Below, piece by piece: positions 60,643 through 63,607 of a DNA stretch of 64,000 nt. The stretch's first letter is position 1. Each line of letters begins with the position of its first letter. The DNA comes from Octopus sinensis (Eukaryota), in NCBI RefSeq assembly GCF_006345805.1, contig NC_042998.1, positions 109,678,001 through 109,742,000 on the forward strand, written 5' to 3'. A program made the translations under genes and the position numbers. Under the pieces are notes generated by a model that was not told where the DNA came from, searched no databases, and saw only the letters and a program-made list of their open reading frames with translations.

Positions 60643-62111
60643 TACCGTATCAAGTGAATGTGCAACCATGTATAGTGGCTGATATAGAAAACTAGAATTA
60701 TATTGAGAAATAACTTTCCTGAAATAATTAAAATAGTATTACTAGTTATTGAATAAAAATAAAAGTTTATAAAATATTATCTTACTGAATCAGTAAACAA
60801 TACCGACCGGGTTATGAACATTATATGTTGGTTGTATGTTTCAAGTGTCTCCCTAGATGGAGATTTCCACAGACCAAATAGTGTATTCTTTGCCTTTAAT
60901 TCCCATACATCTTTTAATAAGCCGTGTCCGCCAGGATAATTTTAGACTTTTATATCTAAGCTACCTAAAATGTATTCCTTTGTTTTTAAACCTAATCACA
61001 GAGATAGTTGTTTTCTTGTGAGATATATGACGAATAAAATTAAATAAGTAGGCAATATAAACAACATATAACTCCCTGTGAATTTATCTATTTTGTGTCT
61101 GGAAGATCAACACAGAATCTAACAGGTTACTCTGTATCTGCTGTCTAATCTATAATTGGAGTTTGCGTAGATATTCGTCTTTACTTCGACTCATATAAAT
61201 TTGTCTATTCTCCTGCTCAGTCTTTGTCTCCTATTACTCTTCTTTCGATTTATGACTTACAGCTGTGAATTCTTTATTTACAATTTTGGTTTATCTATCA
61301 TTTCTTCTCAACTGCATTTTATTGATTTCAGCTGGAGGGAAAAAGCCAGTTTTGTGTTTGTAATATTTACCTAGCCAATGTTCTTTTATATTATCCCTAG
61401 CTCTTTTTTCTTCGTATAGAAAACAGAAATCCAAAACATGTTGGTTTAGGAAATCAAACAGAAATCCTCGGATTTAATATATTCCTCATATTTACATATT
61501 CTAAGCGATTTTTTTAATTTAAAAATCACTAAATGCAATATTATGTGCAAGAATAGCATGGTAAAGGAAATGTTTCCTTTTGTCAAATAATTAATATTAA
61601 TTTTTTTTGGTGTAAGCAGACAGTCAAATTGCAAGTGAATTTTAATGGACTAGGCCTAAGAACAGTAAAATAGGGGCATATATTCAACAACTCTGAGAAA
61701 TGGAACAAGATCATTGAGAGTTAATTCATAAGATCGAATGGTGAAACTAAATATTGTTCAATATTTCAACTCAAAGACTTCAGCTTTTCATTTCCTGACA
61801 CAATGCACCCCTTCATGCTATGAAGGTTTATGTGTGTATGCATACACACAAATATATATATATATATATATATATATATATATATATATATATATATATA
61901 TATATATATATATATGTGTGTGTGTGTGTGTGTGTGTGTGTGTGTGTGTGTGTATTGGCAGGGCAAGACTGCTAGGTAGTCGGCCGTATGCTAGAAATAG
62001 ATCATCAACGATCAAATTACAAAAAAGGTTCTCTAGAGGAAAAATTCAGCGAACACCAGAACCAAATTTGGCGGGCAGGACAGATGAAAATTTATATAAA
62101 AAACATAATTA

Positions 62112-62188
62112 ATTGCATACCTCGGTTTCGGCCTTTAACAAAAGAATTACTTATATAATTCAAATGTCCGTGGCCTCATCAGTACAAT
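62112..62188 (-). ncRNA. Type I hammerhead ribozyme, intact core
   Basis: Minus strand: attgta CTGATGA ggcc [acg gaca ttt gaatta tataag taattc ttt tgtt aaa] ggcc GAAA ccgagg TA tgcaat. Stem I attgta/tgcaat, extended stem II, stem III ACC/GGT, triplet GTA. Confidence 0.82.
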
Positions 62189-62925
62189 CGTTCAGTGTAA
62201 ATGCAACTTGAAAAAATAACCCCAGCTTTCTGTGCCAAAACAGACACGTGTTTAGTTTTACCGATTACATTAGGTATAAGATTTCAAATGTCTTAGTTCC
62301 GGCGCGCTAAAAAATTCCTGAAGCGAAGAACTGCAGTAAATAATTCACTGCGGTTAGTGCTTGCTACTAGAGAACGTATTTATTTCAATATTTAAATTAT
62401 GAGGGAGATAAATTAATATTAATTTTAATATCAATTTAAAACCGAGGTATGCAATTAATTCTGTTTTTTATATAAATTTTCATCTGTCCTGCCCGCCAAA
62501 TTTGGTTCTGGTGTTCGCTGGATTTTTCCTCTAGAGAACTTTCTTTGTAGTTTGATCGCTGATGATCTATTTCTAGCATACGGCCGACTACCTAGCAGTC
62601 TTGCCCTGCCAATATACACATATATTAGAATTTTCTCTGTTTTCTCAGATTTTTTGTATGCCAGACTACTGGTTTTAAATTGATATTAAAATTAATATTA
62701 ATTTATCTCCCTCATTATTTAAATATTGAAATAAATACGTTCTCTAGATGCAAGCACTAATGCAGTGAATTATTTACTGCAGTTCTTCGCTTCAGGAATT
62801 TTTTAGCGCGCCGGAACTAAGCCATTTGAAATCTTATACCTAATGTAATCGGTAAAACTAAACACGTGTCTGTTTTGACACAGAAAGCTGGGGTTAGTTT
62901 TTGCAAGTTGCATTTACACTGAACG

Positions 62926-63002
62926 ATTGTACTGATGAGGCCACGGACATTTGAATTATATAAGTAATTCTTTTGTTAAAGGCCGAAACCGAAGTATGCA
63001 AT
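62926..63002 (+). ncRNA. Type I hammerhead ribozyme, second copy (one stem III substitution)
   Basis: CTGATGA 62932-62938 and GAAA 62985-62988; stem III reads ccgaag instead of ccgagg; otherwise the same as 62112-62188. Confidence 0.75.
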
Positions 63003-63607
63003 TAATTCTGTTTTTTATATAAATTTTCATCTGTCCTGCCCGCCAAATTTGGTTCTGGTGTACGCTGAATTTTTCCTCTAGAGAACCTTCTTTGTAGTTT
63101 GATCGTTGATGATCTATTTCTAGCATACTGCCGACTACCTAGCAGTCTTGCCCTGCCAATATACACATATATTAGAATTTTCTCTGATTTCTCAGATTTT
63201 TTGTATGCTAGACTACTGGTTGTAAATTGATATTAAAATTAATATTAATTTATCTCCCTCATTATTTGATATATATATATATATATATATATATGTATAT
63301 TGTTGCATTTAGGAATGGTTATTTTGCCAGTTTAGCCAATAAAAACACACGCACTATATATTTGGTGTTACTTTGCTTCAGTGTTATCTATTTTTTACAT
63401 TAATCTTAATCTTATTTCGGCCAGAGTTCTTTTGTCACACTCCCTGGGCCCGCATCAGTGGTCCTTGTTTTCTTCTTACTTATTTGTGTCTCTCCTTACT
63501 AACCGTCCACACACGACTTCACATAAAAAATCTTGCACAACAAATATTTAAACGTATATATATATATATATATATAATATATATATATAATATATATATA
63601 TATATAC

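Follow-up and report, generated by a model that had tools for sequence, protein, structure and literature searches.

A 1.3-kb insertion at positions 61953-63267 of the window, that is, of the whole 64-kb stretch of Octopus sinensis DNA analysed here, was found to lie within a microsatellite and to consist of one backward and one-and-a-half forward copies of a 547-bp unit, arranged head to head. The unit is a member of a many-copy family of approx. 545 nt. We lean towards the explanation that this is a non-autonomous family of retrozyme type, whose RNA would cut itself and circularise, and that it was copied here by the enzyme of a Penelope-like element (PLE). The insertion thus presents PLE-style ends on a retrozyme-type unit.

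Structure and divergence of the insertion

The inverted arm (61953-62443, minus strand) is 5'-truncated, corresponds to 62671-63161 of the unit and has its 3' end at a (TG)n array. The direct arm (62439-63267, plus strand) is non-coding, contains approx. 35% GC and holds 1.52 units of 547 bp. On the left the target microsatellite is composed of (TA)32 followed by (TG)19 (61852-61952) and on the right of (TA)16 (63269-63300). Both arms have in common a 5-bp microhomology, AAACC, at 62439-62443. The sequence-only reading had described a non-coding 547-bp unit in about 1.5 direct copies and one inverted copy, joined at AAACC and differing by few substitutions, and the repeat alignment confirmed all of this: the junction is a 5-bp overlap of the two arms, the direct repeat 62439-62720 / 62986-63267 (period 547) contains 9 differences in 282 nt, and the inverted arm aligned to 62671-63167 shows 16 differences in 498 columns, placing the arms approx. 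3% apart. No further copies of the unit were found within the 64-kb window.

In the 182-nt overlap of all three copies, 3 private differences were counted in the first direct copy, 3 in the second and 4 in the inverted one. These star-like private differences point to one insertion followed by independent drift of approx. 1.5% per arm, and not to a duplication made during assembly. An assembly artefact at 61953-63267, which had been raised earlier as a possibility, was rejected, since each of the three copies carries private substitutions. Private alleles of the locus were located at 62521, 62540, 62559 and 62993. To judge from the sequence, this copy is likely an ageing and decaying member of its family.

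The inverted copy had also been proposed to add about 490 bp of potential double-stranded RNA. Folding of a read-through RNA indeed predicted approx. 480 nt of the inverted arm to be paired. The inversion itself is the usual footprint of PLEs and not special. Such pairing would suit a long hairpin selected by the host, as a substrate of ADAR or of small-RNA pathways. We consider a selected hairpin, or equally an artefact, to be most improbable, as the star-like substitutions in the three copies fit neutral decay and not a duplicated read, and the window has at least three further head-to-head inserts that are also located in microsatellites. The central junction of the locus was seen in none of the listed family contigs, which could be held in favour of an artefact but proves nothing.

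Several other repeats were noted in the window. An unrelated head-to-head pair of tRNA-headed, SINE-like repeats at 51150-51790 has an A/B-box-like head and an (AAT)n spacer; its right arm carries at 51721 a minimal PLE-type hammerhead with an extra base at 9/10.1 and no stem III (fold z -1.3), and its left arm has the same head and 3' tail as the right arm, without the ribozyme. The repeat resembles a SINE whose 3' end is of Penelope type. At 7796-8080 a head-to-head inverted repeat between (TA)n arrays (84-nt arms, 95% alike, with an extension of approx. 60 nt on one arm) shows a PLE-like footprint and no hammerhead match. A small inverted repeat at 63603-63790 (59-nt arms, 97% alike), just downstream of the insertion and also between (TA)n arrays, is possibly another PLE-type insertion. 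The repeat at 27786-28320 is MITE-like, with inverted termini adjoining (TA)n and an internal inverted repeat of 136 nt. Disrupted reverse transcriptase frames (PF00078) that look LINE-type were located at 731-1579, 3008-4003 and 55559-55966, and transposase remnants at 18306-18575 (PF01359) and probably at 59701-60000 (helix-turn-helix matches).

The hammerhead ribozymes and the RNA of the unit

The descriptor scan revealed one complete type I hammerhead per strand. On the plus strand it spans 62926-63002, with the core at 62932-62938, GAAA at 62985-62988 and a predicted cut after 62996. On the minus strand, in the inverted arm, it spans 62112-62188, with the core starting from 62182, a predicted cut after 62118 and an intact palindromic loop III. 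Stem I is 6-7 bp long, stem II has a 4-bp base that is extended, and stem III is made of 2 bp closed by a 4-nt loop; compared by descriptor with the definition given in PMC4209133, neither complete hammerhead has an extra base at 9/10.1. The intact core, 6-bp stem I and extended stem II described earlier were thereby confirmed. Local folds of the hammerheads gave z values of -2.8 to -3.3, and the strict descriptor matched 0 of 5000 shuffles of the unit and had 0 matches in 40 shuffles of the whole window. Rfam did not detect the hammerhead, either at the gathering score or at E<=5.

Stem III had been described as quasi-palindromic and as too tight to close in a monomer. The palindromic ACCGAGGU was found to be confined to the 5' half-site (62441-62448) and the minus-strand ribozyme, and for these the description as quasi-palindromic holds; the complete plus-strand ribozyme carries ACCGAAGU, where loop III has a G>A change at 62993 that is private to this copy, and there it does not. 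The stem is not too tight for a monomer, as it closes with 2 bp and a 4-nt loop, and only a third pair would be too tight. The family base at 62993 is G in all four public runs that we analysed, and the change is predicted to weaken the palindromic loop III duplex from -6.6 to -2.3 kcal/mol.

It had further been claimed that a 547-nt monomer would be released at this locus between the GUA sites at 62449 and 62996, but the 5' site was found to have no catalytic half. The segment 62441-62455 (plus strand) contains the stem III palindrome, GUA at 62447-62449 and the 3' strand of stem I. Since G12 and all that precedes it are lost at the junction, the GUA at 62449 amounts to no more than a substrate half-site; neither CUGAUGA nor a stem II is present upstream of it. 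From the sequence, the downstream catalytic half might pair with the 5' half-site before it pairs with its own, so that the locus itself would release and circularise the monomer. We find this hard to believe: the required pairing of the catalytic half with the half-site had a probability of 0.00 in the ensemble of the direct arm, the change at 62993 weakens the loop III duplex, 76 of the 77 ribozyme bases are paired with the inverted arm in the predicted fold of the read-through RNA, and the unit lacks Pol III boxes. An active retrozyme has been defined by two complete ribozymes (preprint 10.64898/2026.07.22.740005). On either strand of the locus one complete ribozyme was found, and with a half-site only, the change at 62993 and the predicted burial the locus falls outside this definition. 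The copy at 61953-63267 is probably no source of circles.

The predicted unit between the GUA sites (62450-62996, plus strand) has a GC content of 34.7%. When circular it is predicted to fold at -129 kcal/mol with 63% of the bases paired (z -3.5), versus -106 +/- 6.5 kcal/mol for shuffles, and 1 of 60 shuffles was as stable. The 5' strands of the long-range helices lie at 62497-62539, and their predicted partners at 62739-62828, across the 3' end of the unit and the tandem junction, the strong helices connecting 62502-62539 with 62739-62820; the four main helices had probabilities of 0.94-0.99, and stem I had a probability of approx. 0.14 in the circle ensemble. A predicted hairpin with a CACA loop at 62611-62626 (plus strand) coincides with the end of the inverted arm and is the best (TG)n-annealing site in the unit. 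In a 12-bp helix pairing was retained by all three family variants. Over the whole circle fold 11 of 40 family variants broke pairs against 14.9 expected (P=0.09, not significant), thus structural selection on the whole unit was not supported.

A coding role for the unit was rejected, as none of its sense-strand ATG frames reaches 30 aa and Pfam gave no match on the five frames overlapping the element. Neither Pol III A/B boxes in the unit nor a tRNA gene were found.

The family in public runs

For the family survey, contigs of four public runs (X1, X7, X9 and X20), carrying three organism labels, were aligned on one unit (62500-63046) at 85% likeness. Family contigs were present in all four runs, with 1241, 349, 137 and 11 per run. 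In the run search 20 of the 24 rows listed contained part of the stretch, with shares of 0.22-0.40; these rows come from 10 studies under 4 organism labels, and among the matches listed no holder was recorded as RNA. Exact-pattern scans of metagenome contigs and of viral contigs gave 0 matches.

Variation within stem I is consistent with its preservation. In X1, 62927 T>A and 63001 A>T each reached 76%, a compensatory change of U-A to A-U; 62930 T>C (67%) turns U-G into C-G, and loop II is GUAA in 99.9%. These figures are run-level shares and unphased, and the shares at 62927 and 63001 are less equal elsewhere (43% vs 74% in X7, 82% vs 61% in X9). The change 62939 G>A reached 78% in X1 with no listed partner change at 62984; in record 13 of X20, A10.1 and U11.1 occur together in one contig.

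Record 9 of X20, a contig of 573 nt, starts and ends on 62683-62712, a 30-nt overlap derived from the coordinates and not from the overlapping letters. Terminal repeats of 30-mers are the mark of a circular contig in Logan (PMC12424806), so that the record would spell a closed unit of 543 nt; a tandem array in DNA or RNA closes a contig likewise, and X20 is taken as RNA by guess only. Compared with the unit it has 27 other letters over 473 aligned, and in place of the ribozyme's 5' half it carries 100 unlike letters. As it keeps the unit order under another organism label, the unit length is fixed. Two other head-to-head (opposite-strand) joints were seen in family contigs at different breakpoints, which indicates that inversion is recurrent in the family. 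Loose ends and replaced segments at 62650-62689 and 62874-62978 point to related, more diverged subfamilies, which share the 3' region and differ in the upstream and stem II regions of the ribozyme.

The summed depth over 62519-62746 was approx. 8-10 times that of 62747-62936 in X1, X7 and X9 and 1.8 times in X20; the run data are contigs, from which ends, strand and expression cannot be read, and their summed depth is not a copy number. The excess hints at 3'-anchored, 5'-truncated copies, a pattern that we gave little weight, since contig depth cannot rank parts of the unit. An excess in three of four runs would also be expected if other or truncated elements shared the 3' part, and the insertion could consist of ordinary pseudo-LTR fragments with truncated 5' ends that derive from an autonomous PLE (Hydra, Neptune or Penelope/Poseidon clade), with the 547-bp period as a by-product of truncation. 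All architectural traits of the insertion are indeed PLE traits, and PLEs of the Hydra clade target (TA)n, have hammerheads with a short palindromic stem III near the 3' end and are present in Octopus (PMC8557442). We nevertheless judge this origin to be quite unlikely. The same junction, with the same unit order, is seen in X9 record 25 and X20 record 9 as well as in both arms; truncation by chance would not produce this. The family contigs cover 62766-62941 continuously, and no ORF-like loose end is listed for them. The ribozyme of Hydra-1_oBim differs in sequence, and four 15-nt motifs were absent from the supplement that contains this element. The internal segment 62747-62925 (plus strand) is thinner yet continuous in family contigs, with no ORF remnant seen, and among 24 of the 204 loose ends there were no ORF-like junctions.

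The retrozyme or circular-RNA reading of the sequence finds support in the family, which is non-coding and multi-copy with a compensated stem I and a self-closing 543-nt unit, and not for this locus. By analogy with known elements the family is likely a retrozyme, with predicted cleavage and putative circles. An ordinary pseudo-LTR had been set against a retrozyme as an alternative; we found the labels of retrozyme and pseudo-LTR derivative not to be exclusive.

Relation to Penelope-like elements and retrozymes

A typical PLE insertion is a partial tandem with an adjacent 5'-truncated inverted copy, biased towards microsatellites (PMC8557442, PMC3846280). The locus shows the partial tandem with such an inverted copy, and it lies in a (TA)n/(TG)n microsatellite that obscures any target duplication. 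The optional tail of 30-40 bp on one end was not seen; the 3' ends of the two arms correspond to unit positions 62614-62620 and 62720, approx. 100 nt apart. At the left junction lies the longest (TG)n-pairing run of the unit (11 nt vs 8 elsewhere), where the last 11 bases of the left array could pair, with G-U, with the AC-rich 62615-62625. There is little (TG)n-type pairing at the right end.

In the mechanism that we favour, source loci with at least two units would be transcribed, and unit-length RNA would be released by their hammerheads, which probably act as dimers that pair at the palindromic loop III; a host ligase would then close this RNA. At a (TA)n/(TG)n tract both strands would next be nicked by the RT/GIY-YIG protein of a PLE, and from these opposite strands two cDNAs would be primed at separate internal positions of the periodic RNA. 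The first cDNA, starting in the AC-rich hairpin (62614), would yield the inverted arm, and the second, starting near 62720, the arm of 1.52 units; both would cross a hammerhead site that had stayed uncut or been ligated again, and AAACC is where their 5' ends would join. For cleavage, ligation and the identity of the enzyme the scheme draws by inference on known retrozymes (PMC7229834).

Both arms cross the cleavage site, thus the template was either an uncut multimer or a ligated circle, and the sequence cannot say which. An uncut multimer would explain the crossing if the same PLE-mobilised family were copied from linear tandem transcripts, the hammerhead being an inherited pseudo-LTR feature and circles rare or absent. 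The purified PLE protein of the anole cleaves and extends both target strands and initiates inside an AC-rich stem-loop downstream of the hammerhead; its template is unprocessed RNA, no reads are reported to end at the hammerhead site, and hammerhead cleavage is unnecessary for insertion in vitro (PMC11167929). Among Xenopus retrozyme dimers 1 of 9 was cleaved, leaving 8 of 9 uncleaved (preprint 10.64898/2026.07.22.740005). The active fold is weakly populated in our ensemble, and a tandem transcript could also close a contig. We still regard copying from linear transcripts as unlikely, as stem I is preserved by a compensatory change within a ribozyme geometry canonical for retrozymes, the unit circle folds better than its shuffles, and most of the depth along the unit in X20 sits in one self-closing contig.

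Retrozymes have been recorded from cnidarians, mussels, amphibians and other animals, and animal retrozymes were proposed to be non-autonomous PLE derivatives in a 2026 preprint (Li, Clavereau & Pollet, 10.64898/2026.07.22.740005). The element resembles metazoan non-LTR retrozymes in its non-coding tandem unit of low GC (<50%) with one type I hammerhead per unit, in the 6-bp stem I, the 4-bp base of stem II and the 2-bp stem III with a tetraloop, in head-to-tail units of fixed length across a multi-copy family (547 here, 543 in X20), in a stable, self-paired predicted circle and in the proposed mobilisation by PLEs. Unlike in those retrozymes, loop II is internal and followed by a long stem, and the locus, known from sequence alone, consists of 1.5 units and an inverted arm. 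Circles of invertebrate retrozymes measure 170-400 nt, those of mussels 350-390 (Cervera & de la Pena 2020, PMC7229834); the 547-nt unit exceeds this size, yet lies within the 51-972 bp that the preprint gives for retrozyme units. More tentatively, and in our view doubtful rather than probable, circles of approx. 545 nt, above the known invertebrate size, may occur in cephalopods and be copied by Penelope-like enzymes through two-strand internal priming.

With endonuclease-positive PLEs of the Hydra and Neptune clades (PMC8557442, PMC3846280) the element shares the partial tandem, the head-to-head 5'-truncated inverted copy and the (TA)n target, and also hammerheads 165-271 nt from the 3' ends and the palindromic stem III (PMC8557442). 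In contrast to them it has no RT/GIY-YIG ORF, and its 3' ends are offset by 100 nt and not 30-40 nt. No RT plus GIY-YIG ORF was found between the repeats at the locus, a scan of 147 of the 195 filtered window frames gave no GIY-YIG match, and the nearest reverse transcriptase fragments are at least 6 kb away; identity with an autonomous PLE was therefore rejected. No autonomous partner was found among the window frames and 24 of the 204 contig loose ends. Hydra-1_oBim was rejected as a direct parent on its different ribozyme sequence, in a comparison of ribozymes only. Hydra-clade PLEs would, by analogy, be plausible partners given their (TA)n targeting, similar ribozymes and occurrence in Octopus.

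Internal priming in an AC-rich stem-loop and two-strand extension, as in Poseidon of Anolis (PAc; Frangieh et al. 2024, PMC11167929), would yield such arms. PAc differs in being autonomous, in a hammerhead that overlaps the ORF start and in priming that needs no target homology, whereas at the left end here an 11-nt (TG)n pairing is possible. As in the minimal hammerheads of PLEs (Cervera & de la Pena 2014, PMC4209133), the ribozyme is type I with a weak palindromic helix III and expected to act as a dimer; the extra base at 9/10.1 and the little or absent helix III of those hammerheads are both missing here. The element would thus be retrozyme-like in its working and PLE-like in its insertion, two kinds that the preprint argues to be one.

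No cephalopod retrozyme was found in the open-licence literature, and the element is possibly the first of its kind noted in cephalopods. The kind itself is known and the link to PLEs already proposed, so that the added value is modest but real. With its natural ribozyme variants and a candidate 543-nt circle, the family is suited to testing whether circles serve as the template of PLE mobilisation. Cephalopods are known for heavy A-to-I editing. If circles are indeed copied by PLEs, 3'-anchored head-to-head insertions would map the starts of reverse transcription on the retrozyme circle, the partnership of retrozymes and PLEs would become directly mappable, and such insertions would seed long double-stranded RNA in this heavily editing lineage.
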